A stretch of DNA of 64,000 nt from Rickettsiales bacterium (GCA_031266915.1 JAISAB010000002.1:76738-140737); one strand, 5' to 3'. Positions 67-64,000 are shown, counted from the first letter of the stretch. Notes: generated from the letters alone by a model not told the origin. Numbers and translations are program-made.

Positions 67-570
67 GTGAGCGAAATCATAAATCTTAAATTATTTATGC
101 TTGTCTTTATCGGAATGGCAACCGTCGTACTGTCCGGGCCGTCACAGGCCGAAATCGCATCCAAGTCTTATGTGGATAGTCTGGCCGCGGCCGGCGGCGG
201 GACCATCGGCGGCGGTTCCGTCCCGTCGTGGGCCGTGCTGAAAGACGCGAACTGGGTATCGCCGAATTGGGGCGATATATGGGAAGTGGTTTCAGCCGAC
301 GGCGCATATAAAGCCGAAGGCGTCGCGGCATGTCTGTCAACAAAAGACAAATCCGGCAACGCCCCGGCTGACAGTGCATTCGGAGCTAATTGCTGGTGCA
401 AAATATTGGCTGTAAATAATGTAATTGTTTCTGGCGCCTGGGTGTTTGCTTACACGGACACCTTAGGGGCTTCGGCTTGCTACGCGCGTTGCGCGTTTGA
501 TTGTTCTTTTTGCGTTCGCAATAACGGAAGCAATTCGTGCACACGCGCCGCGCTGTTCGCCACGCAATGA
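67..570 (+). CDS. hypothetical small secreted cysteine-rich protein
   Basis: 167-aa ORF with an N-terminal hydrophobic signal-like segment (LFMLVFIGMATVVLSGPSQA). The C-terminal third is Cys-rich (CWC, C..C..C). No recognisable family. Confidence 0.5.
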   Translation: MSEIINLKLFMLVFIGMATVVLSGPSQAEIASKSYVDSLAAAGGGTIGGGSVPSWAVLKDANWVSPNWGDIWEVVSADGAYKAEGVAACLSTKDKSGNAPADSAFGANCWCKILAVNNVIVSGAWVFAYTDTLGASACYARCAFDCSFCVRNNGSNSCTRAALFATQ

Positions 571-10896: not shown

Positions 10897-11769
10897 TTAC
10901 GATTTGTTAAAATAATCCGCCACCGTGTCCACGTATTCGGAATAGGCGTCGAAATCCCCCTTTTCGCTGTCCGTCAATTCGCGATTGCGATGGGCGTCCA
11001 TATAATCGCGCAGCGCGTCGACCGAATCGAACCGTTCGATGTTGTCCGCGTTCGCGGCGTCGCCCGTTTTCGGATTGATGACGAACGCACGGATGTCAAT
11101 CCTGATGTCTTCCAGCGTTTCGGTGAATATTGTATTCAGTTTGTCGGCCGCGGCGGCCAACATTTCGGGCGCGACCCCGACAGCGCCCATCCACAGCGTT
11201 TCATCAGCGCCGACTGCGAACAGGGCCGGCCGCATCCCGCCGATGCGCGGCGGTTTCTTGACCGTGTATCCTGCGGACTTGAATATCTGTTCGATGTCCG
11301 CGAAATTGTCAGGCGTGTTTTCTGGCGCAAATACAGGTGCGGGCGCGGCCATCGGCGCAAAGCTTGGCGCGTCTGTGCCGCGCGGCGCGGCGCCATGACC
11401 GCCCGCCGCCGGCAATTTCAGTCGTGGCGGCCGCGCGTCCGACGCGCTATTCGTTGTCGCCGTGGTTGCGGACGGCTTGGTAGCCGGTTCGACGTTCTCC
11501 GCCGGGCCGGGTTTAAATTTGATTTTTCTGAACCTGGGGCGCGCAATCAGGTACAGGCCCGCCACCATCGCCGCGACAATCACAATCAGCGATATATAGA
11601 ACGACGGCCGGACGGCGGTCCCGGACGCCTGCAGATGGCCCAGATAGCGCCAATGCGCGCCGGAAAACAGATTGAATCCGAACTTGGCGTCGAACCAAAA
11701 GCACGCGCCCAGAGTCGATGCCAGCAGCCACAACAGCCCCAGCAAAAAATGGTCGATTTGTTTTTTCAT
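10897..11769 (-). CDS. hypothetical membrane protein with Pro/Ala-rich linker
   Basis: 290 aa with two N-terminal TM helices (LLGLLWLLASTLGACFWF; ISLIVIVAAMVAGLYLIA). It has a Pro/Ala/Thr-rich low-complexity linker and an acidic C-terminal domain. Confidence 0.5.
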   Translation of the reverse strand: MKKQIDHFLLGLLWLLASTLGACFWFDAKFGFNLFSGAHWRYLGHLQASGTAVRPSFYISLIVIVAAMVAGLYLIARPRFRKIKFKPGPAENVEPATKPSATTATTNSASDARPPRLKLPAAGGHGAAPRGTDAPSFAPMAAPAPVFAPENTPDNFADIEQIFKSAGYTVKKPPRIGGMRPALFAVGADETLWMGAVGVAPEMLAAAADKLNTIFTETLEDIRIDIRAFVINPKTGDAANADNIERFDSVDALRDYMDAHRNRELTDSEKGDFDAYSEYVDTVADYFNKS

Positions 11770-11829
11770 ACCGTTTCAATTGTATCATATTTGTGGTACA
11801 CTGAAAAGAATAAAACAAGATGGGCGAAC

Positions 11830-12525
11830 ATGGTGACGGCATCCGCTTCGGCGCTTTTTGACGAAATAAAAAACATTGCGGCGCTGGACTGTCCGGACGG
11901 CCGGGACTCGGCCGAATTGATTCATATTGCGGAAAAGGCGGCGGCGACCGGCATACCGCTGGTATCCGCCGGACCCGAATCGGTCGAGGCGCTGTGGACA
12001 TGGCTGGAAAAAAAGCCCGCAAAGATACTGGCCAGATTTTTCCTGGCCAATTCCAAAAGCAAGAGCTTTGATTTGGAACGCGAAATATCCGCCTTGTCGC
12101 GGAACGTGAACGGCGTATTAAAAAAGGGCGCGTCCGGCGCGCAGGTCTTTGTTCCCCCAACTGCGCTGGATTCGTTTGTGAACGGACTGCTGCCGGTACG
12201 GGACGGCCTGTTTTTCAACAAGGATTTGGCGATATGCCTGGACATGACCAAAATCGACGCGACGGATTGGCCGGCGCTGCTGGGAAAGTTGAAAAAAATC
12301 CGGGCCGACGCCATGGGGCTGTACCTGCCGGCCGGCAAAAAGGGGCCGCCAGATTTCGTCGGCCGCGTTTACGGATTGCTGGAAAGCTTGGATGATTCGG
12401 AATTCGGCGGAGAATTGCACTTTTTACTGGGCGACGACTTTGAAAAGATAGAGCAGGTTTGGCGTCTGGCGAATAAAATGCGCCCCGACGCCGCGCGCAC
12501 AATAAGGTTCTTCATAGGAATTTAA
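11830..12525 (+). CDS. hypothetical protein (C-terminal part of the long ORF 10360..12525; only this part is non-overlapping)
   Basis: The start MVTASASALFDEIKNIAALD... is at 11830. The first 490 codons of the 721-aa ORF are antisense to two convincing minus-strand genes, so only this C-terminal 231 aa is plausible. Confidence 0.4.
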   Translation: MVTASASALFDEIKNIAALDCPDGRDSAELIHIAEKAAATGIPLVSAGPESVEALWTWLEKKPAKILARFFLANSKSKSFDLEREISALSRNVNGVLKKGASGAQVFVPPTALDSFVNGLLPVRDGLFFNKDLAICLDMTKIDATDWPALLGKLKKIRADAMGLYLPAGKKGPPDFVGRVYGLLESLDDSEFGGELHFLLGDDFEKIEQVWRLANKMRPDAARTIRFFIGI

Positions 12526-12569: not shown

Positions 12570-12650
12570 TTTTGGCTCCTAAAACTCAATATCAGGGTGA
12601 CGGCAAGCGATAAGAATGTTGAAAAGATACATTTTTGTCACTTGGGCGTT
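12570..12650. repeat. truncated copy of the MITE-like element (internal part only)
   Basis: The sequence aaaactcaatatcagggtgacggcaagcgataagaatgttgaaaagatacattttt matches the MITE internal/3' portion (..aaaacttcaagattcgtcata.. / ..tatgacggcaagagaaaagaatttcgaaaaaggtacatt..) and lies upstream of the autotransporter gene. Confidence 0.4.
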
Positions 12651-12717: not shown

Positions 12718-15576
12718 ATGAGTATATTTAAAAATATTTTTCTGGGTTCGCTGCTGTTGGTCGCGTGCGCTGGCGGCGCATTTGCCATAACTGGGGAGGG
12801 ATTGGTCGAAAATTCGAACGATTCCAGTTCCATGGGGTACGGCGGATATAATAATATAACCATCATGTCCGACGCGTCGCTGATTGTCGACGCCACCAGC
12901 GGCGGATATATAAACGTTACGAACACTTTTTCAGTCGCGAAAAATTTTCTGCACAACGGCAAGGACATTTCAGTATTGACGGGCGACCCAACTTTTTATA
13001 AAAAAGGCGGTTTCGCGTTCACAGGCAGCGATTCCATCGTCACGGCGAAAAATCTGGTGGTCGGCGGTGACTTTATCAACGGCGACGGCGCGTCTGCTTT
13101 GAATTTGGCGCTGAATGTCGATGCAATCAATGTGACTGGAACATTTTATGCCAATCAGAACAGCACGATTGTCGTAACGCCGAATGATTGGTCGGCCAAT
13201 CCGTCCTTGACGGCCGGCGATATTAATGTTGCCGGCAGCGTGTATATGGGCGATTCCGGCACGGGCACCGTTAAAATTGCGTCCGCTGCGGATGATAATG
13301 TTTATAAAATCTCCACGGCCGGAACTTTGGATGTCGACGGCAATATCCAGGCCCAGAAAGGCCGGCTGGTCATCAACGGAGATACGGTCAAAGTGGCAGG
13401 GAATGTAGAGGGCCAGGTGGTAATCGAAAAAGGCGTGGTCGAAGTAGCGGGGAATGTCTTGGGCAAGGTGGATTTCGACGTCGGCAATCTGAACATCGGA
13501 AATCTGACCGTCGATTCGAATGCGTCGCTGGATTGGAAAGACAGATTCACTGATCAAGGAACGGGCGATTTGCTGGCGGACGGAACATTAAATTCGACCG
13601 GCGATATATTAATCGGCGGCACGGTGAACGGCAAGCTGAATATCAAGGGCGACGCCGACATGTGGATTGGCGAAGATTTGCTGGGCTATCTGGGCGTAGA
13701 TGTGGATAATTTGTACGTTTTAGGAAAAATCGAAGGCTCTGGAAACATCAAGGCCGACACAGTGAATGTCGGCGGCAACCTGGCGGGCGGCAGCGGCGGT
13801 CTGGTCGTCGACGCGGGAAAGGTTAACGTCGACGGCGATTTGTCGGGCAATTTGAACATTGACGCCGACGATATTCTGGTCAACCACGATGTATTGGGCG
13901 GAACGAAATTTAGGCCGAATCTGCCGGGCGGCGGCAATACCGGCGACGCCGAGACGCAATTCCACATAAATCCAAACGGCGGCGCGCCCGGCAGTATGTT
14001 CAAGCAGACGGATTTGACGATAGCCGGGACGTACAACTTTGACGACGATTCGTATCTGCAGCTGGTTCTGAATTCCAAAACGGCGAACAGCGACGGAACG
14101 GCCGGGTACAACCCGAATACTGACGATGCGCTGATAACGGTGGGCGTTTTCGATGCGCGCGGCGTCTCGTCGTCGCCGAATTTCCTGAATATGGATTTGC
14201 CGCCCAATATCGAGATACTGGTCGATAATCTGAAAGAAACGATTCCCAAAATCAGGCTGATAAACGTGACCAGCGGAACGATAGACATGGGCGGATTGGA
14301 CTTCGCGGGCCTATGGTTCTATTGGGACAAAGATAACGACGGCGCCGCCGATTTTCGCCTGTTCCAGGAAGCAAGATTGGTCGCGGACGGCAACAATATC
14401 TATGCGATGGTCGCGATGATGAATTCTATCCAGCGTCTGACGCGCGACGCGGCGGGCGCCGTCAGCAACGATATTCAGGCCGCGGGCGCTGTCGACGATT
14501 TGATTCTGCAAAGGCTGCATGGCTATTCGGAATATACCACGGACGATTTAACCAATTATTACACGTCGGTGATGCGCCTGTTGTTTCCGGATTCGGACGT
14601 TTATTACGATTTGATGCTGAACGGCGGCGCTTATCGCGACGCTATGGATGTGATGGTTTCAGAAAATCCGGACTATGCGCTGGGATTTGTGCGCGGCATC
14701 GGACTGGACAGCGTTTCAACAATCAGAAACAAGCTGGAGCTGTCAGGCCGAACGGCCCGCAACGCTGTGTCCGACCAGCTGATGGAAGACTATTCCTGGA
14801 AGCGATATTATGACAAAAGCGTCGCGTGGGTCCGCGTGGGATTCGGGGATGCGCTTATGTCCTTTGACTTCGGCGCTGACACTAGAGTTAACAAAAAGTT
14901 CATCGCAGGATTCAACTTCGGATATAACTTGCTTGATTTCGGCGATTTGGACGGCCGGACGATAAATCTGGGGTTATATGGCGCGTACGACCTGAATGAT
15001 TGGGCGCGCCTGCACGCGAATCTGAATCTGGCGCTCCATTCCGTCGACGCCAAGACGAACAGCATGATTGTCAGGGAAATGAAAACCCATCTGCGCACGG
15101 CGGACACGGTTTTGGATGTCGGCGTCCTGCATAAAATCTTAGACCAGTATGTCACGGGACGCGGATATGTGGCGTTCGGACTGCTGGGGGGATATGAATT
15201 CACGCAAAAGTACAAGGGCAGCGACTTTATGGATGTCGCCGTCGGCAATCGCGTGATTTTGGCGCCGGGATACGAAATCTCGATGGGCAAGGATATATGG
15301 CTATCGGTCGGCGGCTTTGTGCGTCCGTCGTTGAAATTTGGAATCGAATACGATTTGCTGGACGGCGGCAGTCGCAATGTGGACTTCAAATTTTCAGAGG
15401 TCAGCGCTTATCGCACCTGGCAGGCGTCCGATTCCGACAGTTTGTGGCTGCGTTACGGTGCGCAGATTGATTTCTCGTTCATCGTCGGAACGAATATTTC
15501 TGTCGGATACGAAGTGCTGAAAAACGGCGATTTCAAAGCTAATCAATTCAAACTGAACGGGGTGTACAGGTTCTAG
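12718..15576 (+). CDS. autotransporter (type Va) outer-membrane protein with beta-helical Gly/Asn/Val-rich passenger and C-terminal beta-barrel
   Basis: 952 aa with signal peptide MSIFKNIFLGSLLLVACAGGAFA. The passenger has repetitive VNVGGNLAGG/GNVEGQVVIEKG motifs. The C-terminal ~280 aa show alternating amphipathic strands (GFNFGYNLLDFG..., LGLYGAYDLNDWARLHANLNLAL) and end in ...GVYRF. Confidence 0.75.
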   Translation: MSIFKNIFLGSLLLVACAGGAFAITGEGLVENSNDSSSMGYGGYNNITIMSDASLIVDATSGGYINVTNTFSVAKNFLHNGKDISVLTGDPTFYKKGGFAFTGSDSIVTAKNLVVGGDFINGDGASALNLALNVDAINVTGTFYANQNSTIVVTPNDWSANPSLTAGDINVAGSVYMGDSGTGTVKIASAADDNVYKISTAGTLDVDGNIQAQKGRLVINGDTVKVAGNVEGQVVIEKGVVEVAGNVLGKVDFDVGNLNIGNLTVDSNASLDWKDRFTDQGTGDLLADGTLNSTGDILIGGTVNGKLNIKGDADMWIGEDLLGYLGVDVDNLYVLGKIEGSGNIKADTVNVGGNLAGGSGGLVVDAGKVNVDGDLSGNLNIDADDILVNHDVLGGTKFRPNLPGGGNTGDAETQFHINPNGGAPGSMFKQTDLTIAGTYNFDDDSYLQLVLNSKTANSDGTAGYNPNTDDALITVGVFDARGVSSSPNFLNMDLPPNIEILVDNLKETIPKIRLINVTSGTIDMGGLDFAGLWFYWDKDNDGAADFRLFQEARLVADGNNIYAMVAMMNSIQRLTRDAAGAVSNDIQAAGAVDDLILQRLHGYSEYTTDDLTNYYTSVMRLLFPDSDVYYDLMLNGGAYRDAMDVMVSENPDYALGFVRGIGLDSVSTIRNKLELSGRTARNAVSDQLMEDYSWKRYYDKSVAWVRVGFGDALMSFDFGADTRVNKKFIAGFNFGYNLLDFGDLDGRTINLGLYGAYDLNDWARLHANLNLALHSVDAKTNSMIVREMKTHLRTADTVLDVGVLHKILDQYVTGRGYVAFGLLGGYEFTQKYKGSDFMDVAVGNRVILAPGYEISMGKDIWLSVGGFVRPSLKFGIEYDLLDGGSRNVDFKFSEVSAYRTWQASDSDSLWLRYGAQIDFSFIVGTNISVGYEVLKNGDFKANQFKLNGVYRF

Positions 15577-21564: not shown

Positions 21565-22164
21565 ATGAGAAAATTAATGTTTCTTGTTGTTTCGTTTCTG
21601 GTTGTTTTGTCTCTGGCGCCGAGATTGTTCGCCGCCAGTTGCAGCGGCAGCTGCTGCGACAGCGGCAATGTATTGGGAGGTTCTAACATAATGGATTATT
21701 GCATTGGCTCCAGCGTTAGATTTATTGGGTGTTACGACACATATATAGTTTATACATGCGATGCGTGCATATCCGGCTACTATACCAGGTACAAAATCGA
21801 TAGTGATTATCCTGGCGAAATATATGGATGCCATTATGACCCGCCAGCATGCGGCACATGCAACGAAACGGTCACCGACTGGGTAAATGTAGACTCGAGC
21901 CGCCAAAGGCGGACCGTCACCAAAACATGCGCCAGCGGATGCACTTGTACCAATTGCAGCGGCACTGTCACGGAATACCAATGCGGCGCCAATTATTACG
22001 GCACCGCGACCAACAACAGCACCAGTTGTACCAGTTGCCTGAACAACGGGAAGAAAGCAGTGGGCAACGGCGATATAACGGACTGCTATATTCCGGCCGG
22101 TCAGGAAATCAGCGACGACACGGGCAAATTTACATTTGATCAGGACTGCCATTATTCGAAATGA
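21565..22164 (+). CDS. cysteine-rich secreted protein
   Basis: Signal peptide MRKLMFLVVSFLVVLSLAPRLFAA, followed by ~30 Cys in 175 aa (CSGSCCDSG, CTCTNCSG). The RBS is aaggaggt. Confidence 0.6.
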   Translation: MRKLMFLVVSFLVVLSLAPRLFAASCSGSCCDSGNVLGGSNIMDYCIGSSVRFIGCYDTYIVYTCDACISGYYTRYKIDSDYPGEIYGCHYDPPACGTCNETVTDWVNVDSSRQRRTVTKTCASGCTCTNCSGTVTEYQCGANYYGTATNNSTSCTSCLNNGKKAVGNGDITDCYIPAGQEISDDTGKFTFDQDCHYSK

Positions 22165-36440: not shown

Positions 36441-36698
36441 CGAATCCATTGGGAATGGGTTCGGGGTCTCAAAAGCCCATAGATAAACGGCGATGTAAAA
36501 ATCGTTGTATCCCGCACAATAAAATCGCGGGCGAAAGCCCGATTTTTTTATTGAATCCTCGCCAGTTGGTCGGGGAAGCTGCCGGTATATAAAACAGCCT
36601 CGGCGCCATTTATGGCGACGGGCGAAAACTGGCGGGGTCATTTTTATCTATGATTTTTGAACTCCCCGACCGCCAATTCCCATGGCGGTCTTTTTATT
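36441..36698 (+). ncRNA. structured ~255-nt 5' leader with antiterminator/terminator alternative; candidate riboswitch or attenuator L1, homologous to 43325-43580
   Basis: A sigma70-like promoter (TTGTTT-17-TAAAAT, ~36406-36434) precedes it. The 5' block gaatccattgggaatgggttcggggtctcaaaagcccatagataaacggc is conserved. ggtcgggga (36578-) is complementary to tccccgacc, which overlaps the 5' arm of the terminator gaccgcca-N7-tggcggtc plus tttttatt. The terminator ends at the ATG of the downstream gene. Confidence 0.5.
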
Positions 36699-37154
36699 AT
36701 GAAAAAATGCCTGTGTATATTTTTATCGATTATATTTGTTGCGCCATCGCCGGCGGCAACATCGCGCGGTCGCGCAAATTACAATGTTGTCCAAAATCCG
36801 CGCGCAACGGCAACGAATATTCAATCCGCGCCTGTGTCGCAGGCGCCTGAATCGGAAACTATTGAACCGCAGAAAACAATCGCTGATATTGAAGATGCGG
36901 CTGTGTCCGCGGCATCTGAAGATAATTCGTCGCAGATTTTGGAATTAAACGCCGCTATTCGTGAACTGGAAGACGAAATGTTCAAAATGGATTCCGAATT
37001 GCGTCGTTGCGACCGCATGCGCCGCGACTGGCGCACGGCGACAATTATCGGCGGAATCGGCGTCGTTGGAACCGCCACCGGGGCGATTATTCAGGCAGCG
37101 CAAATATCCAAACAGAAAAAAGAAAATACAAAAACGGATGCGCCCCAGGAATGA
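36699..37154 (+). CDS. secreted coiled-coil protein with C-terminal hydrophobic anchor (paralog A)
   Basis: The signal peptide MKKCLCIFLSIIFVAPSPAA is followed by an acidic region, a coiled-coil (LELNAAIRELEDEMFKMDSELRRCDRMRR) and a Gly-zipper TM (TIIGGIGVVGTATGAIIQAA). Confidence 0.55.
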   Translation: MKKCLCIFLSIIFVAPSPAATSRGRANYNVVQNPRATATNIQSAPVSQAPESETIEPQKTIADIEDAAVSAASEDNSSQILELNAAIRELEDEMFKMDSELRRCDRMRRDWRTATIIGGIGVVGTATGAIIQAAQISKQKKENTKTDAPQE

Positions 37155-37541: not shown

Positions 37542-38111
37542 ATGAAAAACAAAATGATGATCGGCGCAATGGCGGCAATGCTGGCTGCAACATCCGCGAA
37601 TGCGTATAACCAGGCGGATAAAGACCGCTGTCTGGCGAATCCTGACAAAGTTGTGTGGGTGGAATCCAAGGGCGCATGCGTACCAAAAAATCCGTGCGAT
37701 GGGAAATATGATTATAAATATATAGCTTATTGTTCCGAAAAGTTCGGGTCTGTGGTTGTAGATAGTGTTGATACAGCGATAAATATGGTTAAATCGTTTC
37801 ATGCAACTTCAATGAACGTACCCTGTAATAAAGCAGCCTATGTAATTGATTCTGCCGCCGATGTCTCTTGTTTTACAGGACCATATAATGAGTATTTCGT
37901 ATATGCTTTTTCTGGAGTTATGTCGTCTGGTATTACAACCAATATACTAAATGAAGATATATCTTTTTGCAGAAAATATAACTGCGGGTATGACGTTTCT
38001 TACAAAAAAGTATTTCAATGCGATTGTACCAACAATGATGCCAATTATGACGGTATAAAAAAAGTAGAAAAAGTTGAATGCGGCGAGGGCTATTGTGAAG
38101 TAAAACGCTAA
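37542..38111 (+). CDS. cysteine-rich secreted protein
   Basis: Signal peptide MKNKMMIGAMAAMLAATSANA with an RBS aaaggaaag upstream, and 20 Cys in the mature part. The 3' half is AT-rich. Confidence 0.55.
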   Translation: MKNKMMIGAMAAMLAATSANAYNQADKDRCLANPDKVVWVESKGACVPKNPCDGKYDYKYIAYCSEKFGSVVVDSVDTAINMVKSFHATSMNVPCNKAAYVIDSAADVSCFTGPYNEYFVYAFSGVMSSGITTNILNEDISFCRKYNCGYDVSYKKVFQCDCTNNDANYDGIKKVEKVECGEGYCEVKR

Positions 38112-40022: not shown

Positions 40023-40098
40023 GGGTGCGTAGCTCAGTTGGTAGAGCAACTGACTCTTAATCAGTGGGTCTGGGGTTCGAATCCCCACGCGCCCACCA
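40023..40098 (+). tRNA. tRNA-Lys (anticodon CTT)
   Basis: The cloverleaf is acceptor gggtgcg/cgcgccc, D arm gctc-agttggta-gagc, anticodon arm actga-ctCTTaa-tcagt, T arm tgggg-ttcgaat-cccca, and an encoded CCA. Confidence 0.9.
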
Positions 40099-40109
40099 AT
40101 TTGAAACCG

Positions 40110-40215
40110 TTGGATTTCCGGCGGTTTTTCATTTAATTTGATTCAGTTATATTCACGAAAATGTTTGCTGTCAGGCGTTTTTTGTCCCGTTTTTGCCCCC
40201 GGGTGGTGTGAAAAT
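40110..40215. repeat. ~100-bp direct repeat, left copy (flanks AT-rich islet next to tRNA-Lys)
   Basis: ggcggtttttcatttaatttgattcagttatattcacgaaaatgtttgctgtcaggcgttttttgtcccgtttttgcccc...gtgtgaaaatggcgaatttc is about 85 percent identical to 41040-41145. Confidence 0.55.
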
Positions 40216-40472: not shown

Positions 40473-40955
40473 ATGCAAGCAAGGATTTGTACTATGACTA
40501 AGAAAAAAGATTTTGACACAGCGATTAAACAGATAAAAGAAAACACCAAAAGCAAAATCATAATTTCTAAAAAACTAGAAAAGGCTTGGGATGTTTCGCC
40601 ATTGGTTCCAACAGCGCAGCAAATGAAGTCATTCTTGGAAGAAATTATGTCAGTAAAAAATAAATTACAACAGAATATCGGTTCCATTGACCTGTCAAAA
40701 AAATCAAAAAATGCAGTATGGGGATTAAACGGCGGCGAACTGGTAAAGGATAAGGTTCCAGGTATTGAAGAAGATATGAAAAACTTGGACAAGTTGGTTA
40801 ATTCTTTGAATATTAAGTCGAATTCAAACGAGATTAGGTTCGTATTGGAAAAGATGACCTCGTTAGAACAAAGGGTCAGAGAACTGTTAATTGTGCAAAA
40901 TCAATCTCGTTTTCATAATTTCTTTCACGCAAATTTTCCTATTTTTGTAAGATAG
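40473..40955 (+). CDS. hypothetical protein on tRNA-Lys-adjacent AT-rich islet
   Basis: 160-aa ORF (alternative ATG at 40494). It is Lys/Asn-rich with low GC, and a -10-like gatataat lies just upstream. Confidence 0.45.
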   Translation: MQARICTMTKKKDFDTAIKQIKENTKSKIIISKKLEKAWDVSPLVPTAQQMKSFLEEIMSVKNKLQQNIGSIDLSKKSKNAVWGLNGGELVKDKVPGIEEDMKNLDKLVNSLNIKSNSNEIRFVLEKMTSLEQRVRELLIVQNQSRFHNFFHANFPIFVR

Positions 40956-41039: not shown

Positions 41040-41145
41040 GCGGTGGTTTTTCATTTGATTCATTTATATTCACGAAAAGGTTTGTTGCAAGGCGTTTTTT
41101 GTCCCGTTTTTGCCCCAGAAAAGTGTGAAAATCAGCATTTCAGAA
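41040..41145. repeat. ~100-bp direct repeat, right copy
   Basis: ggtggtttttcatttgattcatttatattcacgaaaaggtttgttgcaaggcgttttttgtcccgtttttgccccagaaaagtgtgaaaatcagcatttc. Confidence 0.55.
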
Positions 41146-41194
41146 GTATTTCAGGTCATTGTTAATGAATTTAAGCTGAAATTATATGCCCTTG

Positions 41195-41392
41195 AAAACA
41201 ATCGTTCAACCGACAGGAATGTACCTTTATCGACATTCTTTTCACTTGCCGTCACCCCAGCCACCGCGGGGGTCCAATGTGTTTATCATACATGTATTGT
41301 TCACAGCTTGAATACAATGGATGCCGTCCTGCGACGTCATGACGAGTCTTGAGTTTTTGAGGCCAAAAAGGTACATTCCTGTCAGTTGAGCT
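41195..41392. mobile_element. MITE-like palindromic element, copy B (plus a solo terminal repeat at 41404-41422)
   Basis: The termini are cgttcaaccgacaggaatgtaccttt ... aaaaaggtacattcctgtcagttgagc. The interior is the reverse complement of the copy C interior (ggtccaatgtgtttatcata..gttcacagcttgaatacaatggat). It is followed by ccattcctgtcagctgaac. Confidence 0.6.
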
Positions 41393-41423
41393 ATTATATT
41401 AAAGCCATTCCTGTCAGCTGAAC

Positions 41424-42971
41424 TTATCGTATCGTATGATAAGTATTTCCCGAATAGTTGACATTTATCGCATTGCTGGCCGAACCATTGCCCAGGCTGG
41501 CGTAGCATACGGTTCCTGATGCGCTTTTTATATTTATGGATGGAATTGTGTTCTTGACAGCGTACAGAGGAATGATAAGACTTCCCGCGCGCAGGGTGGC
41601 GAATCCTGCGGCGCACATCTGCGCGCACCCACCGGCGTCCGTCTGCGAATACCCTGAATCGCAATCCCACGGGCAATTATTTCCGGTCACGCCTGCGCTG
41701 TTGCTATAACTGGAATTTGCCGGCTTGTTGGTGCAGTTGTTGCACGATGTCTGACCGGTCAGATTCTGATAGGTTCCCGCGGCGCACGCATCGCAGGAAT
41801 AGTGCCCGCTGCCGCCGGTATCGTATATCACCGTTCCGTCGTAAAGCGCCTCGCTGCCCGATACGCCGTAATGACCCGCAGGGCACGGAACGCACGAGTT
41901 AAGAAAGTCGGGGCCTTCTGGAATATCGACGGTGTAATATCCGCTGGCGCATTCGCCCCAATATCTCTTCTGGCAATTGTCGAAATTACTGCCGCCCCAC
42001 CAGCAAGTGCCGGATATGGAACTTTGTTCCGTCCAAAAGCCCGTTCCGGACCAATACCAGAAATTTCCCTTCGTATGGCAGTCGGTCGAATCATCAGAGC
42101 CAGAATCGGATGTGACTTTTGTGCTATTAGCCGCATGTCCCGGTATAAGGTCCTGACATGAATATCTGGCGGAACCATAAGAAATACCAGGACAGTAATA
42201 GCCTTGCTCGCACATGACACATTGCCCGTCAGACAGATAATATCCTTTGTCGCAGCTGACCGCGCAACCGGACGTCGCGCCCCAGGTATAGCACCCGCTG
42301 ACCCCGTTCTTGGTCGCGTTGCATGTCTGGGTGCCGTTGATTGTTCCGTTTGCAACGCTGCCGCAGCTGGCTGTCTGCGAAGTGTTGTACGTGCAGTCGC
42401 TGGTGCATGTGGCGACAGCGGGGCACGCGGTTCCGCCTGCGCAGGTGTATCCGCTGCCGTAATCCGAGCATGGCCGGCACAGCCTGGCATCCGAATTTGG
42501 GGTGCATATTGTCTGACTTGGGCTGGGCGCCATGTAGTATCCGGCTTCGCAAGTCTGCGGCACGCAAGCCCCCCAATCGTCGCCATAGGAACAGTTGTTG
42601 AAGCCGTAGTAGCTGCTGCAGTCGCCGACCAGGGTGATGCGGGATTGCTTTCCGACGCCGTTGGCTATCGCGCAGTTCTGCGATGGCGCCAAATTATCAC
42701 AACTGCATGTGTTGACGGCGCCTGGAACGCATCCTGCATTTTCTGGCCAGTCGCATATTTCCAGAGACCAATTCCAAAAAAGACCATCGGGGCAACTTAT
42801 TCTTTGATTAACAAAAGCCCCGCAAATATAAAGCGACTGACAGTCGTTGAAATCGGGAGTATAAACGGGATTTTCATCCACAAAAAACTTCTCCGAGCAG
42901 GCAGGCACTCCATAGGCCATATTGGTCGCGCATTGCACGCAAAATATGATGATAAATATAAATTTTCTCAA
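41424..42971 (-). CDS. large cysteine-rich secreted protein with Ephrin-receptor-like / VSP-like CxxC...GxY repeats
   Basis: It has a TTG start and the signal peptide MRKFIFIIIFCVQCATNMA. It contains ~70 Cys with repeated units (CVPCPAGHYGVSG; CDACAAGTYQNLTGQTSCNNC; CRPCSDYGSGYTCAGGTAC) that resemble eukaryotic GCC2/GCC3 (Ephrin-receptor-like) or Giardia VSP repeats. The antisense ORFs here are GC artefacts. Confidence 0.6.
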   Translation of the reverse strand: MRKFIFIIIFCVQCATNMAYGVPACSEKFFVDENPVYTPDFNDCQSLYICGAFVNQRISCPDGLFWNWSLEICDWPENAGCVPGAVNTCSCDNLAPSQNCAIANGVGKQSRITLVGDCSSYYGFNNCSYGDDWGACVPQTCEAGYYMAPSPSQTICTPNSDARLCRPCSDYGSGYTCAGGTACPAVATCTSDCTYNTSQTASCGSVANGTINGTQTCNATKNGVSGCYTWGATSGCAVSCDKGYYLSDGQCVMCEQGYYCPGISYGSARYSCQDLIPGHAANSTKVTSDSGSDDSTDCHTKGNFWYWSGTGFWTEQSSISGTCWWGGSNFDNCQKRYWGECASGYYTVDIPEGPDFLNSCVPCPAGHYGVSGSEALYDGTVIYDTGGSGHYSCDACAAGTYQNLTGQTSCNNCTNKPANSSYSNSAGVTGNNCPWDCDSGYSQTDAGGCAQMCAAGFATLRAGSLIIPLYAVKNTIPSINIKSASGTVCYASLGNGSASNAINVNYSGNTYHTIR

Positions 42972-42991
42972 TTTTTAACCAGCTAATTTAA

Positions 42992-43081
42992 ACGTCCCTT
43001 TGGATTAGGCAACGCTTCTGCTTTCAATAATCCCTGATTTCCGCTGCTTTCTCTCTCTACGTTTTGCCTAATCCAAAGGGA
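42992..43081. promoter_or_regulatory. 21-bp perfect inverted repeat in the divergent promoter region of the two Cys-rich genes
   Basis: aaacgtccctttggattaggc (42992-43012) pairs with gcctaatccaaagggacgttt (43061-43081). It lies ~20 nt upstream of the TTG start of the minus-strand gene and shares aatccaaaggga with the start of leader L2. Confidence 0.4.
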
Positions 43082-43324
43082 CGTTTGAATCAGGCATGGC
43101 AATATGCTTATTTACGTTTTGAATTATCTCGTATATTCATCTTTCTGTCAATGAAAAAAATGGCGTCTTTAGATATTTATATTCGGATTGTATTTCTGCA
43201 GGAGTATGTTTTGCAATCCTGGCGCGGCGAAACCATCACGAGCGGTGGTTATAAAATAGAGCATGGCCATAAAAATCAATTAATTTTTCTTTGAAAAAAT
43301 TTAGTTTTAGTTTACAATACATGT

Positions 43325-43580
43325 GAATCCAAAGGGATTTGGGTTCGGGGCCTTCAAAAAGCCCATATAAGAACGGCATTGTAAATGTCGAAATCCGCAT
43401 GATAAGACACGGCGCGGATGCGCCTTTTGTTTTATCATGAATGCCCCGCAAAGGTCGGGGGGCCGCCGGTTATGCAACAGGGTTATCCCAAAGGCCAGCG
43501 GGGTCATTTTCTTATATGATTTTTTGAACTCCCCGACCGCCATTTTCTTGGCGGTTTTTTATATAAAAAAAGGAAATCAT
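43325..43580 (+). ncRNA. structured ~255-nt 5' leader with antiterminator/terminator alternative, L2, homologous to 36441-36698
   Basis: A promoter TTGAAA-16-TACAAT (43291-43318) precedes it. The conserved 5' block is gaatccaaagggatttgggttcggggccttcaaaaagcccatataagaacggc. ggtcgggg (43455-) is complementary to ccccgacc, which overlaps the terminator gaccgcca-ttttctt-ggcggt plus tttttt (43533-43562). The RBS aaaggaaa and the ATG follow. Confidence 0.5.
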
Positions 43581-44642
43581 ATGAAAAAAACAATCCGCAT
43601 GTTATTCTTCCTGGCATGCGTCTTTTGCGCGCTGGACGCGCGCGCCGGATGCAAAGGCACCGAATGGACGTACAAGCGGAACAATCACGGCAACAACGGC
43701 AACGCCATAGGATGTGACTGCAGCGAGAAATCCAGCGGATACCGAATATACGAGCGCGGATACAACTCTAAAGCGTTTGTTGACGGCAACAAGACCAGAT
43801 GCAACTTTCCAAATCGCAGCTATTGCCATGATACCAGCGGCGCCCGCGACACGTGGGAGAACTGTACCGGAAAAATCATATATTCCGGAACTCCGTCAAG
43901 CCATGATTCCAGCGGTCTGGGGCATCAGATTCCGGCGGACGTTCTTTTCGAAGTGTCGTCGCTGCCGCTGAACAGCACGGCACGGCCGCACCTAAATGAC
44001 GGCGGCGACGAGAGCAACTGCAAACAGGACGGCAAAAATGGCGAGTGCGGATGGGTCGCATTTTGCAACAGCGGATTCGAATGGAATTCGACACACAAAA
44101 AGTGCGTTTGCCCCGCTGGCCGGGTCTCGTCTCCGGATGGCAAATCGTGCGTGACAATCGCCGAATGCGAATCGGATTCCAGCTATGAGGCAACGGACGG
44201 CGCCTGCATCACGTCGAAATGGTGCAGCCCGGAATGGAGGACCAGCTTCGACAACGCGCAACACGCGACGAAACTCGTCAACAACTGCGACGAATTCCGA
44301 TGCATAGACGGATACGGATTCAAATCGGCGTCGGACAAGTCCTGTGTGCCGGCCGAGGGCGACAAGTTCGGCGGCCAATACCCTGATTCGACAACCGGGA
44401 TTATGAAAAATTGCATGAAAACGCAAAAAGTGAGAATAACCAAAAGCGGCGATACTTCGGAATATTCGTGCGCAGAGGCCGATTATAAGGCGTCCGACGA
44501 CGAAATGAAGAAATGCTTTCGCTGCGAGGAAACCGAAGATTTCAAAAATTGCATAAAATTCCAAGGCAAAGACGGGATAAACGGAGTTTTGCTGAAATGT
44601 GCGAAATGTATGGAGTTAGACGCGATGCCGTGCTGGGAATAA
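43581..44642 (+). CDS. cysteine-rich secreted protein
   Basis: Signal peptide MKKTIRMLFFLACVFCALDARA, then ~40 Cys in 330 aa with EGF/TNFR-like spacing (CVCPAG, CNSGFEWNSTHKKC). Confidence 0.6.
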   Translation: MKKTIRMLFFLACVFCALDARAGCKGTEWTYKRNNHGNNGNAIGCDCSEKSSGYRIYERGYNSKAFVDGNKTRCNFPNRSYCHDTSGARDTWENCTGKIIYSGTPSSHDSSGLGHQIPADVLFEVSSLPLNSTARPHLNDGGDESNCKQDGKNGECGWVAFCNSGFEWNSTHKKCVCPAGRVSSPDGKSCVTIAECESDSSYEATDGACITSKWCSPEWRTSFDNAQHATKLVNNCDEFRCIDGYGFKSASDKSCVPAEGDKFGGQYPDSTTGIMKNCMKTQKVRITKSGDTSEYSCAEADYKASDDEMKKCFRCEETEDFKNCIKFQGKDGINGVLLKCAKCMELDAMPCWE

Positions 44643-44648
44643 AATAAG

Positions 44649-44838
44649 GCTCAACTGACAGGAATGCACCTTTTTTGCCCCAAAACTTCAAGATTCGTCA
44701 TACCGGCGCCAGCTGGTATCCATTGTATTCAAGCTGTGAACAATACCCGTATGATAAACACATTGGACCCCGTCCTGCGACGGGGTGACGCCAAGTGAGA
44801 AGAATATCGAAAAAGGTACATTCCTATCGGTTGAGCGA
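44649..44838. mobile_element. MITE-like palindromic element, copy C
   Basis: The termini are gctcaactgacaggaatgcaccttttttg ... aaaaaggtacattcctatcggttgagc. The interior has caagattcgtcataccgg and the same sequence as the copy B interior in inverted orientation. Confidence 0.6.
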
Positions 44839-44901
44839 AAATAAATATAAGTCGATTTCGAACTTTTTTAATGCGAATTTGGATTTAGTATTATAGAATA
44901 T

Positions 44902-59134: not shown

Positions 59135-60169
59135 TTATTCGTCGCGTTTGTCCGGGATTTCGCCGTTCGCGCTCAGCAATACCGCTATCCATCGCGTGGA
59201 ATCGAACTGGGCGGTGATGATGAACGTCGCCACCAGCAGCGGCACGCTGAAGAACATTCCCGCCACGCCCCACAGCATTCCCCAGAACACCAGGTTGATT
59301 AAAATCGCCAGCGTCGACAGGTTCAGCGTCTTGCCGGTCAGCTTTGGTTCCAGGATGTTTCCGAACACTACCTGCAGGCCGATTAATCCGACCGCGACCA
59401 GAATCGGCATATTCATCGAATCGGCCGTAACCAGCGAATACAGTATCGGCAGCGAGCACGCGACAATCGCGCCGATTGTCGGAATATAGCTGACTATGAA
59501 CACGATGAATGCCCAGACGCCCGCGAATTCCAGTCCCAGAAAATGCAGCCAGAAATAAGACACCAATGCCGTGACGGCGGAAATGAACGTCTTCATGAAC
59601 ATGTATTTCTTCATGTTTTCGTCGATGCTGGCGAAGATATAGCGCATCTTTTTCGACTGGGTCTTGTTCGGGAACAAGGCGGCGAACTTTTTGTGGAACG
59701 TGCTTTGTTCGATGAACATAAAGAAGATGTATACCAGAACCATCCCCAGGGTCGCCGCAAGCCCCGTGACGGACGATCCGATGCCGGCCGCGATGCTTGT
59801 TATGTTCGGCACGGCGCCCGGCGACAGCGACCCGCCGAAATACCCGGTGATGTAATCGGTCAGCAATGTCAGCTTGCTCTGGATTTCAGGCATGCGCGCC
59901 ATCAATTCCGAAAACATCGGGCGGACCTGGGTGACGAACAGATAAGTTAGCCCGGCGAATGTCGCCAACGACAATGCGCCCGATAGCCAGTCGAAAACGA
60001 TGTGCGGGACTTTGCCGTCTTTTTTTCTGAACGGCATGGCCTTGCGGTAATAGGCCGAAATGGCGTTAATCAGGTACCATAAAAACGCGGCGATAACGAC
60101 CGGGATGAAAATAGGACGCCCCAGCCACAAGACAAAGATTATACCGACAAAAAGAATCAAACCGTTCAT
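59135..60169 (-). CDS. AI-2E family transporter (PerM/YhhT, UPF0118)
   Basis: 8 TM helices and the conserved C-terminal region ...GLIGLQVVFGNILEPKLTGKTLNLSTLAILINLVFWGMLWGVAGMFFSVPL are present. Confidence 0.8.
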   Translation of the reverse strand: MNGLILFVGIIFVLWLGRPIFIPVVIAAFLWYLINAISAYYRKAMPFRKKDGKVPHIVFDWLSGALSLATFAGLTYLFVTQVRPMFSELMARMPEIQSKLTLLTDYITGYFGGSLSPGAVPNITSIAAGIGSSVTGLAATLGMVLVYIFFMFIEQSTFHKKFAALFPNKTQSKKMRYIFASIDENMKKYMFMKTFISAVTALVSYFWLHFLGLEFAGVWAFIVFIVSYIPTIGAIVACSLPILYSLVTADSMNMPILVAVGLIGLQVVFGNILEPKLTGKTLNLSTLAILINLVFWGMLWGVAGMFFSVPLLVATFIITAQFDSTRWIAVLLSANGEIPDKRDE

Positions 60170-60238
60170 ATTCGCGCCTTTTGCATACGGATGAATCGCA
60201 AACCGTTCCCGGGCGATAGAGCCATGGGAACAGGCGGG

Positions 60239-61237
60239 CTATTCATTCGCCTCAGTTTCTTCTATTTCCAAAGACACAGCGCCGCCGTTCGCGTCAACCA
60301 GCTGAATCCCGTCGGGCGACATATAGTCGGCGTTGTTTTGCGCCCGCTGTGAAAACATCGCGAACAGGCCGACGCACAGAAGGATAATCGCAATGTTCAG
60401 CGCGCCCGCGACGGTGGAATACATACCGCCGATGTTCTTTTGGAATTTCTTTGTGCCCGCAATCAGCAGCCACACAGCGAATATCGCGCCGAAGAACAAT
60501 TCAAACAGCGCGGCGTAGATGTTGGAACACAGCGCCGTAATCGCTATCATCACCAGAAACGCCAGAAACGCGTTCAGGGGTTTGGCGACGACCCAGTCCG
60601 TCAATTTCGAATACCATTTTGCATGAATAGCGACTGCCGGCTTGGCCTTGGAATCATCCGCCAGCAGATACCCCGGAAACCAGAACATGATGGCGGCAAA
60701 TGGCATGGCCAGCAGCGCCTTGAATCTTGATACGCCCATGGTCAGCGCGCGGCGATATGTCGCGCACAAGCCGGCGATGAACAGGCCGATGATATAAAGG
60801 CCCGCGACAAGTACGGCGACGCCTGGTAACAAGAACCACAACAACAGTGTCGACACGCTGTGATACGGCATCCACATCGCGTACATCATTAATTCAAGCG
60901 CGCGGCTGGCGACAAAGACGGCGAACAGCACGACCACCGCGCAATATACGAACGCCAGTCCATTACTGACGGCGACGAAGCTTTTTCTGTCCAGATTTTC
61001 CTTGGGCAGCCATCCGATGTATTTGCGTATTGAGAAAATCATTGCCGCCGCCATCAGGGTGGCGGCCGCCCAATGCGACAAATCCGCGCCCGGGCCGGCG
61101 GCGATGCGCGTAATCAATGCGTAAATCAGAACAAGCCCGACCATCAGTCCCAGGGACAGAAGGGCGAATTTCACCGGCGCTTTGAAAAACCAAGACATCA
61201 ATTTCGATTTGTTCCCGGCGGTTGGTTTTTGTGCCAT
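60239..61237 (-). CDS. hypothetical polytopic membrane protein (occupies the position downstream of sufC where sufD is usually found)
   Basis: 332 aa with ~8 hydrophobic helices and no SufD similarity. Confidence 0.5.
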   Translation of the reverse strand: MAQKPTAGNKSKLMSWFFKAPVKFALLSLGLMVGLVLIYALITRIAAGPGADLSHWAAATLMAAAMIFSIRKYIGWLPKENLDRKSFVAVSNGLAFVYCAVVVLFAVFVASRALELMMYAMWMPYHSVSTLLLWFLLPGVAVLVAGLYIIGLFIAGLCATYRRALTMGVSRFKALLAMPFAAIMFWFPGYLLADDSKAKPAVAIHAKWYSKLTDWVVAKPLNAFLAFLVMIAITALCSNIYAALFELFFGAIFAVWLLIAGTKKFQKNIGGMYSTVAGALNIAIILLCVGLFAMFSQRAQNNADYMSPDGIQLVDANGGAVSLEIEETEANE

Positions 61238-61267
61238 TATATACTCCTTCAGTTTATAATGTTCAGA

Positions 61268-61951
61268 TTATATCACAATTTTGCCAGACGACAAAGTCGT
61301 AGTTTGACTTGGGCAAACCAGCCGAGTGAAGTTTTCCTGATGGCTGATAAACAGGAATGTCGTCCCCTGCATTTCATTCATAATGTCGGCAATCATTTTT
61401 TGAACGGATGCGTCCGCGCCGGAATCCGGTTCGTCCAAAATCGCCAATTTCGGCGGCGTCATCAGCAATCGCAGCAGCATCAGCCTTTTCCGCTCGCCGC
61501 CGGAAAATCCGACGTTGACGCCGCGGTTCAGCCATTCCTTTGGGATGTCCAGCCGCGCCCGCGCTGTTTCCAAATCGGCCAGGAATTCGCCCATGGACAA
61601 ATCCTTGCCGGTTTGAAAGTGCCTGTGCGCGGCAGCGGAATGCTTTAAAAAGCTCATCACGGTCAGGCCCGGAATTTCCGGCACGTTCTGCGCGCCCAGA
61701 AATATCCCCAACAGCGCGCGCGTCGTCGCGTTTTCATCCGTTACGTTGCGGCCGTCGAAAATAATCCGGCCGCCGCCGATGGTGTAATCGGGATTGCCCG
61801 CGATGGTCTGGGCCAGCGTGGATTTGCCGCTGCCGTTGTGCCCGGACAGCAGATGCCGCGCACCGGCGCCGACGGACAAGTTTATGCCGTCCAACAATTT
61901 CCTGTCGCCTAAATTTACGGTCAGATTTTGTATTTCTAATATATTGCTCAT
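61268..61951 (-). CDS. sufC: Fe-S cluster assembly ATPase SufC
   Basis: Walker A GHNGSGKST, ABC signature FSGGERKR, Walker B LAILDEPDSG and the SufC-type Q-loop are present. Confidence 0.9.
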   Translation of the reverse strand: MSNILEIQNLTVNLGDRKLLDGINLSVGAGARHLLSGHNGSGKSTLAQTIAGNPDYTIGGGRIIFDGRNVTDENATTRALLGIFLGAQNVPEIPGLTVMSFLKHSAAAHRHFQTGKDLSMGEFLADLETARARLDIPKEWLNRGVNVGFSGGERKRLMLLRLLMTPPKLAILDEPDSGADASVQKMIADIMNEMQGTTFLFISHQENFTRLVCPSQTTTLSSGKIVI

Positions 61952-61979
61952 TCCTGATTCCTAATTTCTGATTTCTTTA

Positions 61980-63320
61980 TTACTCTTTGCTTAACGCCAT
62001 TTTGATCAGCTGTTTCGATTCAACCAGAAATTCCATCGGCAGGCGGCTGATTATCGGCGACGCCATGCCGGCGATAATTAGCGCGGTCGCCTCGTCCTCT
62101 TCCATTCCGGACTGCCGCAGATACAGCAGGGACGCCGCGTCGATTGCGCCGGTCGTCGCCTCGTGGCTTTGTTCGTTTTCGCCGTTGGCGTGGACAATTG
62201 TCGGCAATGTGTTCGCGACGCATTTGTCCCCGATTAGCCGGCTGTCGCATTTGCAGGCGTTTTTGCCGCCGGTGCCCGCAAAGCTGACCAGGCTGCGATA
62301 AGTCTGCGTCGATTCCTCCAATGCGACGCCGTATGATACGATATTGGATTTGGTGTCATTTCCGATATGGAGCATTTTGGTGCCGGTGTCGGCCTGCTGC
62401 CGGCCGCGCGTGATGGTCAATGAATAAAAGTCGCTGGCGGCGCCGTTGCCCTTTAAAATCGTCGACGGATATTTCCAGGTCATGGCGCTGCCGATTTCGA
62501 CCTGGGTCCAGTCCAGCCGGGCGTCGGCGTGGCAGATTCCGCGCTTGGTCACAAAATTCAATATCCCGCCGACCCCATCAGAATCGCCGGTGTACCAGTT
62601 CTGAACGGTCGCGTATTTGACGACCGCATCGTCCATCGCGATTACTTCGACCACGCCGCTGTGCAGCTGGTGATTGGGACGGCGCGGTGCGCTGCAACCC
62701 TCGAGATACGAAAGCTGGGCGCCAGAGTCAGCGACAATCAGCGTGCGTTCGAACTGGCCGATTTTTGCCGTTTCGATTCTGAAATAGCTGGCCAAATCAA
62801 TCGGGCATTTCGTGTCTCGTGGAACGTAGACAAATGTGCCGTCGGAAAACACGGCCGCGTTCAGCGCGGCGAAGAAATTGTCGGCCGCCGGCACGACCGA
62901 GCCCAGATATTTCCTGACCAGGTCGGGATGTTTTTCAACCGCCTCGGAAAACGGCAGAAAGATGATGCCAAGACGTTCCAGCTGGGCGGTGTAGGACGTG
63001 TGGACGCTGCGGCTGTCGACGACGGTGTCGGTCGCCATGCCAAGCAGGGCGCGCTGTTCGCTTTCCGGCAGACCCATTTTGTCATAGGCGGCCTTTAAAT
63101 CGGAATTGTCAATCGGCGCCGGTTCCTTGTAATAATCCAGCGCGTCGTAATCAATCGGGTCGTATTCGATTTCTGCCCAGTGGGGCTCTTTCATTTTTCG
63201 CCAGGCGTCGAAAGCATCCAGCCGCCATTGCAGCAGCCAATCCGGCTCGTTCCGGCGGTGCGATATTTCCAAAATTGTGTCTCTGTTCAACATGGATGCA
63301 ATTATAGCTGAAAAAATCAT
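61980..63320 (-). CDS. sufB: Fe-S cluster assembly protein SufB
   Basis: The conserved SufB core is present (DTGTKMLHIGNDTKSNIVSYG; SDFYSLTITRGRQQ; LYLRQSGMEEDEA). Confidence 0.88.
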   Translation of the reverse strand: MIFSAIIASMLNRDTILEISHRRNEPDWLLQWRLDAFDAWRKMKEPHWAEIEYDPIDYDALDYYKEPAPIDNSDLKAAYDKMGLPESEQRALLGMATDTVVDSRSVHTSYTAQLERLGIIFLPFSEAVEKHPDLVRKYLGSVVPAADNFFAALNAAVFSDGTFVYVPRDTKCPIDLASYFRIETAKIGQFERTLIVADSGAQLSYLEGCSAPRRPNHQLHSGVVEVIAMDDAVVKYATVQNWYTGDSDGVGGILNFVTKRGICHADARLDWTQVEIGSAMTWKYPSTILKGNGAASDFYSLTITRGRQQADTGTKMLHIGNDTKSNIVSYGVALEESTQTYRSLVSFAGTGGKNACKCDSRLIGDKCVANTLPTIVHANGENEQSHEATTGAIDAASLLYLRQSGMEEDEATALIIAGMASPIISRLPMEFLVESKQLIKMALSKE

Positions 63321-63475
63321 AAACGCAAATTAGCTGGCAATTAACAGAGCACAGATAACGGTTAATGGATGATGTATGAGGGATAATTTGAGTATTAAAG
63401 CTGAATAAATCTTAAATCATAAATCTTCAATCTTAAATAAAAGAAACTGCGTGTTAAGCATAATAGCTCTTTTTC

Positions 63476-64000
63476 TTATTCCCCGGCCGCCAATTGCTTG
63501 GCCTGGGCGAAAAAGGTCAGCGACTGGCCCAGCAGTCCGTCTGTGAACGTCGCGGACAGAATTCCGTTCGGCTCGGTCGCGGTCAGGTGGCTTAAAAATC
63601 CGTCGGCGCGGTTCAGATAATTGTCGACGCTGCGCGCGACTTCGCCGTCCAGCTTGATGGCGCGGCGCATTTTTTCCAGCGCGAATGGATTTTTCGCGTA
63701 CTCGTCCATAATTCCGCCCAGCGCGCGCCACAGGGGATGCTCGGCCGTGGCGCGCGGCATGATGTCGATGGCCGCCATGATAGGAATCAGATTCTGCAGC
63801 AGGTCCTGGTAAATCATCTCGGCGTTTTCGGTGACGACGTTCGTCGCGTATTTGCTTTTCAGCACGGACTGCATCTTAACAATCAGGGCATACTGGTGGG
63901 ACAGGGTTTGCGCGATGGTTTTTATCTTGGCATTTATACCGAACGCGGCGACGCCGACGGCAATCAGGCCGCAAATAATCACTATTATGGAAATTAGGAT
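63476..64000 (-). CDS. hypothetical protein, partial (continues beyond window end)
   Basis: The ORF is open to the window edge and has no family assignment. Confidence 0.3.
   Translation of the reverse strand: MLISIIVIICGLIAVGVAAFGINAKIKTIAQTLSHQYALIVKMQSVLKSKYATNVVTENAEMIYQDLLQNLIPIMAAIDIMPRATAEHPLWRALGGIMDEYAKNPFALEKMRRAIKLDGEVARSVDNYLNRADGFLSHLTATEPNGILSATFTDGLLGQSLTFFAQAKQLAAGE

Follow-up and report, generated by a model that had tools for sequence, protein, structure and literature searches.

A cysteine-rich protein of a Rickettsiales bacterium combines a CBM14 module with the conserved C-terminal domain of a large, hypervariable protein family

The gene, its start codon and its database entries

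The gene described here lies on the minus strand of a 64,000-nt stretch of DNA from a Rickettsiales bacterium (GCA_031266915.1 JAISAB010000002.1:76738-140737, hereafter the window), and it encodes a protein in which an N-terminal chitin-binding module of the CBM14 type, a long cysteine-rich region and a conserved C-terminal domain (hereafter the tail) follow one another (Table 1). An earlier note on this DNA, made from the sequence alone, had drawn attention to the open reading frame (ORF) as one encoding a cysteine-rich protein of 515 amino acids. The same coordinates and the same length were obtained here, and 46 of the residues (8.9%) are cysteines. The protein is 100% identical to NCBI entry MDR1337609.1, named 'MAG: chitin binding domain-containing protein [Rickettsiales bacterium]' (MAG, metagenome-assembled genome) and located on a contig of 151 kb, and also 100% identical to a JGI/Logan call of 498 amino acids. 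The ORF is a real and intact bacterial gene and was recovered both in the NCBI MAG and in the Logan assembly.

The public entries begin at different positions, namely at residue 31 in NCBI (485 amino acids, an internal start) and at residue 18 in JGI/Logan. With either of these starts the signal peptide is lost, and with that of NCBI the first cysteine of the CBM14 module is lost as well. The TTG codon at 42971 is the better start, because it restores the signal peptide and that cysteine. Inspection by eye of the first 21 residues revealed a basic n-region, a hydrophobic core and the residues A-Y-G before V22, which correspond to an A-x-G cleavage site, and this N-terminus looks like a Sec signal peptide. 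The product had been called secreted in the earlier note; a signal-peptide-like N-terminus is indeed present, and it is from this feature that we infer secretion.

Upstream of the coding sequence, a consensus scan found a promoter-like site of the sigma-70 type, which is a pattern match only. Between this site and the gene, in the presumed 5' leader, there is a 30-nt inverted repeat whose arms are 93% complementary and are separated by 51 nt.

Table 1. Coordinates of the gene, of the modules of its product and of neighbouring features in the window
Feature	Coordinates	Strand	Basis or remark
Complete coding sequence	41424..42971	-	515 aa + stop, TTG start; ORF list
Signal-peptide-like N-terminus, residues 1-21, MRKFIFIIIFCVQCATNMAYG	42909..42971	-	Read by eye from the sequence
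CBM14 / peritrophin-A chitin-binding module, residues 22-88	42708..42908	-	Pfam, PDB sequence matches, Cys spacing
Cysteine-rich variable region, residues 89-412, short CxxG(Y/F)(Y/F) and CxxCx(A/P)GxY units	41736..42707	-	Motif enrichment
Stretch with borderline Ephrin_rec_like match, residues 387-415	41727..41813	-	Pfam PF07699
CTNKPxNSxY...CPWxCxxGY module, residues 413-441	41649..41735	-	Alignments A1, A2, A4, A6
Family-defining C-terminal domain (tail), residues 449-515, CAQMCAAG...PLY...CY..L..G...INV...G.TYHTIR	41427..41627	-	Hidden Markov model search, AlphaFold2
Promoter-like TTGACA-17-GATAAT upstream of the gene	43123..43151	-	Consensus scan, 11/12 matches; pattern match only
30-nt inverted repeat, presumed 5' leader, arms 42983-43012 / 43064-43093	42983..43093	.	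Repeat search
MITE-like element of ~200 nt, ~38-nt terminal inverted repeats, directly 3' of the gene	41191..41404	.	Repeat search, blastn
Other cysteine-rich ORF	67..570		8 Cys, 4.8%
Other cysteine-rich ORF	21565..22164		19 Cys, 9.5%
Other cysteine-rich ORF	37542..38111		12 Cys, 6.3%
Other cysteine-rich ORF, transcribed divergently from the gene	43581..44642		28 Cys, 7.9%

The N-terminal module belongs to CBM14 by sequence

Pfam model PF01607 matched the protein with E=4.6e-7 and 30.3 bits (gathering cut-off, 22.1), and the alignment placed residues 37-81 on positions 8-53 of the 53 positions of the model. The cysteines of the module are located at residues 25, 44, 50, 60, 73 and 81, with a spacing of 18-5-9-12-7. 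The peritrophin consensus is CX(11-24)CX5CX(9-14)CX12CX(6-7)C, and all six cysteines fit it. Among the PDB sequences, the region matched tachycitin of the horseshoe crab (1dqc, E=6.9e-6) and the CBM14 of an insect chitinase (5wus, 2.1e-4), together with a fungal Avr4-type CBM14 protein (4z4a, 4.6e-4) and a chitinase of the nematode Trichuris (6g9c, 6.1e-4). A ...CDWP...GC stretch is common to the protein and tachycitin, and the insect chitinase has the close variant CDWPEN..GC. By all the sequence criteria applied, the protein is a member of CBM14. This module is its best-supported eukaryote-type element and had been missed in the earlier note.

The G+C content at third codon positions is 0.43 in the CBM14 segment, in contrast to 0.65 in the rest of the gene and 0.66-0.73 in housekeeping genes, which fits a grafted module. 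CBM14 is described as predominantly animal and fungal, and the few bacterial cases as horizontal transfer, in a passage of PMC5122149 that cites Chang & Stergiopoulos 2015.

The module most likely binds chitin, be it that of an arthropod or nematode peritrophic matrix or cuticle, or that of a fungal wall. A eukaryote-associated lifestyle of the bacterium is plausible from the chitin module alone. In Pfam score, in six-cysteine spacing and in the CDWP...GC stretch the module is like those of tachycitin, of the insect peritrophins and chitinases, and of fungal Avr4; unlike them, it occurs in a bacterial protein, in which a long bacterial cysteine-rich region and the bacterial tail follow it, and its chitin binding is predicted.

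The cysteine-rich region contains short motifs and weakly resembles eukaryotic cysteine ladders

The strings that the earlier note had quoted from this region are present, at residue 360 (CVPCPAGHY) and at residue 393 (CDACAAGTYQNLTGQTSCNNC). Motif frequencies were compared with those of 20,000 shuffles of the mature protein. The strict pattern CxxCx[AP]Gx[YF] was observed twice (0.005 expected) and the looser pattern CxxG[YFH][YFW] five times (0.055 expected), and neither count was reached in any of the shuffles, whereas plain CxxC stayed at chance level (5 observed versus 3.8 expected). No long internal repeats were detected by self-BLAST. Hence, the description as a repeat protein holds for motifs of about 10 amino acids, which occur far above chance, but the strict unit is present only twice and long tandem repeats are absent.

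The earlier note had likened these units to the GCC2/GCC3 Ephrin-receptor-like domain and to the variant surface proteins (VSP) of protists. When the Pfam models named there were compared with the protein, Ephrin_rec_like (PF07699) matched just above its cut-off (E=3.9e-5, 23.8 bits; gathering score, 23.1), in a single stretch that covers model positions 5-33 of 48 (29 positions), but VSP, TNFR_c6 and EGF gave no match at E≤1. An AlphaFold2 (AF2) model of the full-length protein was of mixed quality and had a mean predicted local distance difference test score (pLDDT) of 62.8, with residues ~190-300 at 77-91. Foldseek comparison of this model with the PDB returned nothing at E≤1e-3. The top of its list, although non-significant, consisted entirely of eukaryotic cysteine ladders, namely a Chlamydomonas mastigoneme protein, 4-1BB, DR4/DR5, OX40, the cysteine-rich domains (CRDs) of EphA2/EphA4, and thyroglobulin. 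The EphA2 CRD reached a probability of 0.96-0.97 and a template modelling score (TMt) of up to 0.45, and members of the TNFR group were found with E=0.03-0.5.

The region resembles the Ephrin_rec_like, TNFR and ELAPOR ladders in its CxxCx(A/P)GxY and CxxGYY hairpin units, in the single borderline PF07699 match and in the weak top fold matches to TNFR and Eph CRDs; it differs from them in having one partial copy, no significant fold match, no ligand-binding context and a bacterial family around it. We consider the likeness to Ephrin_rec_like and TNFR real but marginal, and membership is not established. The comparison with protist VSPs did not hold: besides the lack of a VSP match and the absence of CxxC enrichment, the protein has no VSP-type transmembrane tail, and its C-terminus is a soluble beta domain that ends in YHTIR, not a transmembrane helix with a short tail.

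The tail is a confidently modelled, strictly terminal domain shared by a large family

All homologs collected in the first round have the last ~70 residues in common with the protein. Word-indexed homolog searches yielded only 9, 6 and 6 proteins and greatly understated the size of the family in comparison with an exhaustive profile search. In that search, which covered 1.84 billion cluster representatives, a hidden Markov model of the tail found 580 representatives at E≤1e-3, 370 of them with E≤1e-10. The window protein (P0001) scored 137.7 bits, and its domain ended at the last residue. This terminal position is general, since no more than 3 residues follow the tail in 161 of the 170 proteins collected, even though the length of the family proteins ranges from 75 to 2832 amino acids. 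Members with a source name bear the label of Alphaproteobacteria, Rickettsiales or Proteobacteria MAGs. A signal-peptide-like start was present in 85 of 122 full-length members, according to a crude count of hydrophobic stretches.

The columns Cys437, Cys449, Cys453, Gly456, Cys489 and Tyr511 are invariant in the family. In most members the tail is preceded by the CTNKPxNSxY module, which is repeated inside some of them and in which C413, P417 and C433 are nearly invariant. AF2 modelled the 67-amino acid tail, from an alignment of 80 sequences, as an all-beta domain with a pLDDT of 94.5, a predicted template modelling score (pTM) of 0.81 and seven short strands of 4-8 residues. Foldseek found no match for it in the PDB (best E=2.3) and only a marginal one in BFVD (E=0.19). 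A profile search of PDB sequences gave no relative, and no Pfam or NCBIfam model fell on the tail in the protein or in 85 relatives. Patterns derived from the tail alignment were also scanned over viral and metagenome contigs, where nothing was found. The fold is thus confidently predicted and, as modelled, novel-looking. In precomputed annotation, PF26010 (DUF8003) is listed on the protein. DUF8003 is probably not the tail, because short, tail-only members have no Pfam match in such annotation.

Several known C-terminal domains were considered for the tail and rejected. A membrane beta-barrel or YadA-like anchor disagrees with strands too short to span a membrane, with the conserved cysteines and with the non-aromatic C-terminal residue, and it had no profile match. 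The C-terminal domain (CTD) of the type IX secretion system, the autotransporter barrel and the YadA-type anchor had no Pfam or NCBIfam match on the tail, either in the protein or in the 85 relatives, and no PDB fold match.

What precedes the tail is hypervariable. Among 85 members, the binding-type modules recognised by Pfam in these regions were Ephrin_rec_like (6 members, best E=1.5e-7), Flg_new (5), F5_F8_type_C (3), TNFR_ELAPOR1_6th (3), Laminin_G_3 (1) and CBM_14 (1). Parts of the window protein recur in different relatives: residues 140-247 match P0149 (E=4.8e-40; 69% identity, alignment A5), and residues 240-514 match P0067 (E=2e-50). As judged from these alignments, the modules in front of the tail are shuffled between members of the family. 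Two members were also found within one 14-kb locus. In an ortholog pair from sister genomes the family proteins are only 44% identical, with large indels, versus 78% for SufB and 87% for the adjoining secretin, a pattern that is expected of an exposed, fast-evolving protein.

Some family genes adjoin a secretin gene

Several family members are encoded immediately after a pair of genes, one TcpQ-like and one for a PilN-family secretin. This order was found in two sister genomes (L005 and L013), whose SufB is 77-78% identical to that of the window; there, a TcpQ-like gene and a gene for a PilN type IVb lipoprotein secretin are followed by a family member, and to the left of the pair lie genes for an AI-2E transporter, SufC and SufB and an ORF of 170 amino acids. 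The window contains the same gene order at 59135-63982, where the last ORF (168 amino acids) shares 76% identity with its counterpart in the sister genome. Since the order matches, a secretin gene is probably located just past position 64000 in this genome.

A strict tie between the family and this type of secretin, as seen beside P0002 and P0005, was nevertheless rejected, because in a survey of metagenome contigs (168 relatives of the secretin matched, 80 loci kept, ~55 of them with a readable downstream ORF) family genes occupied the slot in only some 4-5 of the 80 loci and many unrelated genes were found there. The adjacency is a hint, occasional and not a rule.

Proposed function of the protein and alternative explanations

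Modular secreted proteins of eukaryote type are familiar from host-associated bacteria, and the window protein alone would be no surprise. The part of interest is the tail, which is confidently folded in the model, has no structural or profile match and is common to at least 580 diverged clusters of exported proteins that are rich in cysteine, hypervariable and derived from uncultured lineages. We propose, with confidence that is about evenly divided, that the protein is a Sec-exported chitin adhesin displayed at the cell surface, in which the conserved tail serves export or anchoring; an adhesin role, also suggested in the earlier note, is plausible. After cleavage of the signal peptide, folding in the periplasm would give the protein about 22 disulfides. 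The distal N-terminal CBM14 module would then form a chitin-binding tip, the ~320 residues of disulfide-stapled hairpin units would act as a rigid, protease-resistant spacer, and the tail would contact a conserved bacterial partner, either to cross the outer membrane or to become attached to it. The functional analogue would be GbpA of Vibrio cholerae, likewise a secreted modular chitin-binding protein with a proposed role in attachment to chitinous host surfaces. GbpA is a substrate of type II secretion and contains AA10 and CBM5/12-type modules, whereas the window protein has a eukaryote-type CBM14 and a cysteine ladder.

A wider and rather improbable extension is that the tail is the recognition or anchoring tag of a so far undescribed pathway by which uncultured Alphaproteobacteria secrete proteins or display them at the surface. 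This pathway might operate through an orphan TcpQ/PilN-type secretin and would display rapidly shuffled, disulfide-rich binding modules, including a chitin module captured from eukaryotes. The model for this is the cargo of type IX secretion in Bacteroidota, an architectural analogy only: there too, an all-beta domain of ~70 amino acids forms the extreme C-terminus of varied, signal-peptide-bearing, adhesin-like proteins encoded at scattered places in the genome. The tail differs from the type IX CTD in that it has no sequence or fold match, is alphaproteobacterial and has conserved disulfide cysteines; no dedicated machinery has been identified for it, and its sorting role is putative. If it proves to be a sorting or anchoring signal, it would define a set of cargo proteins and open the way to a new export route, and the CBM14 member would then be a concrete, testable case of bacterial attachment to chitinous host linings.

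Several observations weigh against the adhesin proposal. The main one is that some complete short members comprise little besides a signal peptide and the tail (P0012, 119 amino acids; P0158, 137; P0097, 166; P0087, 167), which suggests an independent function for the tail, beyond that of a mere sorting tag. The CBM14 module was found in 1 of the 85 sampled members, the window protein itself, and residues 1-137 of the AF2 model, in which the small beta-sandwich typical of CBM14 would lie, have a pLDDT below 50, in a part of the alignment without homologs. As for the secretin, a family gene lies downstream in 4 of the 80 loci (~5 if one truncated look-alike is counted), the slot elsewhere is hypervariable and holds unrelated genes or none, and in L004, L008, L012 and the window the family genes are not accompanied by a secretin.

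The autonomous function that the stand-alone tail proteins argue for could be accommodated in two other ways. The protein might be a soluble chitin-coating or crosslinking factor like the peritrophins, Avr4 and tachycitin, released and not attached to the cell, with the tail as a second binding or oligomerisation module. The CBM14 assignment agrees with this, no membrane anchor, lipobox or beta-barrel was detected in the protein, and Avr4-type CBM14 proteins are soluble chitin shields (PMC6128652). We regard it as fairly unlikely, however, since a conserved and strictly terminal tail on hypervariable passengers is the pattern of a sorting or anchoring domain, and since soluble chitin binders are usually small and this protein has a spacer of ~320 amino acids. 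Alternatively, the tail might be the working head, such as a lectin, a toxin or a receptor-binding knob, for which the cysteine-rich region and the CBM14 module would serve only as a tether or a targeting device. The compact, confidently predicted fold of the tail and its invariant positions, among them Cys, Tyr and His residues, would suit such a head, as would the minimal proteins and the weak BFVD match (probability 0.97, E=0.19, TMq 0.38) to a myovirus protein that is itself uncharacterised. Heads that meet variable targets usually diversify, however, and here the tail is the most conserved part while the rest varies; moreover, neither Foldseek against the PDB nor the PDB sequence search found any similarity to a known lectin or toxin fold, and we hold this explanation to be quite unlikely.

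Host mimicry, the view taken in the earlier note, would have the Ephrin-receptor/TNFR-like region imitate or engage eukaryotic signalling receptors or their ligands. It could draw on the borderline Ephrin_rec_like match, on the six of 85 relatives that match the same model and the three that match TNFR_ELAPOR1_6th, and on the TNFR and Eph CRDs at the top of the Foldseek list; bacterial Ephrin_rec_like domains have also been read before as horizontal transfer (PMC6993872). The match, however, covers 29 of 48 model positions at a threshold score and has no fold counterpart at E≤1e-3, no Eph- or TNFR-type ligand-binding domain was found, the VSP, TNFR_c6 and EGF models remained without a match, and such ladders of cysteines are a generic type of extracellular scaffold. 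No specific support for mimicry of a host receptor emerged, and this explanation appears very unlikely to us, in contrast to the surface-displayed chitin adhesin proposed above.

Genomic neighbourhood and other cysteine-rich ORFs

The rest of the window is occupied by housekeeping genes of a diderm bacterium, which include those for TatC, LolA, Lnt, a penicillin-binding protein, an M23/LysM peptidase, GluRS, ThrRS, GatA/B and SufB/C, and an autotransporter gene. The gene itself is situated in a mosaic stretch that starts at a tRNA-Lys gene (40023-40098) and contains low-GC ORFs and an ORF resembling a helix-turn-helix transposase. Right after the tRNA gene, an 84-nt direct repeat (40132-40215 and 41049-41132, 87% identical) flanks a low-GC ORF (40473-40955, GC 0.34), and this arrangement resembles the trace left by an inserted cassette. 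Adjoining the gene on its 3' side lies an element similar to a miniature inverted-repeat transposable element (MITE). A second full copy, 84% identical and in the opposite orientation, is present at 44638-44850, directly 3' of the divergent cysteine-rich gene 43581..44642, and partial copies were detected at 2807-3049 and 12595-12633.

The four further cysteine-rich secreted ORFs listed in the earlier note (Table 1) all exist and have signal-peptide-like N-termini. They were considered as paralogs or family members and rejected, since they are unrelated to the protein and to each other and lack the tail domain; none of them had a Pfam or NCBIfam match above threshold. Three other large ORFs of the window, 10360-12525 (721 amino acids), 12718-15576 (952 amino acids) and 690-1913 (407 amino acids), had no Pfam match at E≤1e-3. 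The C-terminal motif of ORF 21565..22164, ...DCY.....D.TG.F.(F/Y)D.DC(H/Y)Y, also occurs in a small secreted ORF of another Rickettsiales MAG (L002, 5586-6035), and a similar ending was found in the secretin-adjacent slot of L032. These occurrences hint at a second small cysteine-rich family around this motif.

Two full-length, sub-threshold matches to the Rfam family sRNA-Xcc1 (RF02221; gathering score, 53) were located on the plus strand at 36569-36678 (40 bits) and 43453-43546 (37.4 bits), each just upstream of an ORF for a secreted protein. sRNA-Xcc1 is associated with integron cassettes. The DNA adjoining the two matches (43498-43571 and 36632-36707) is 86% identical.

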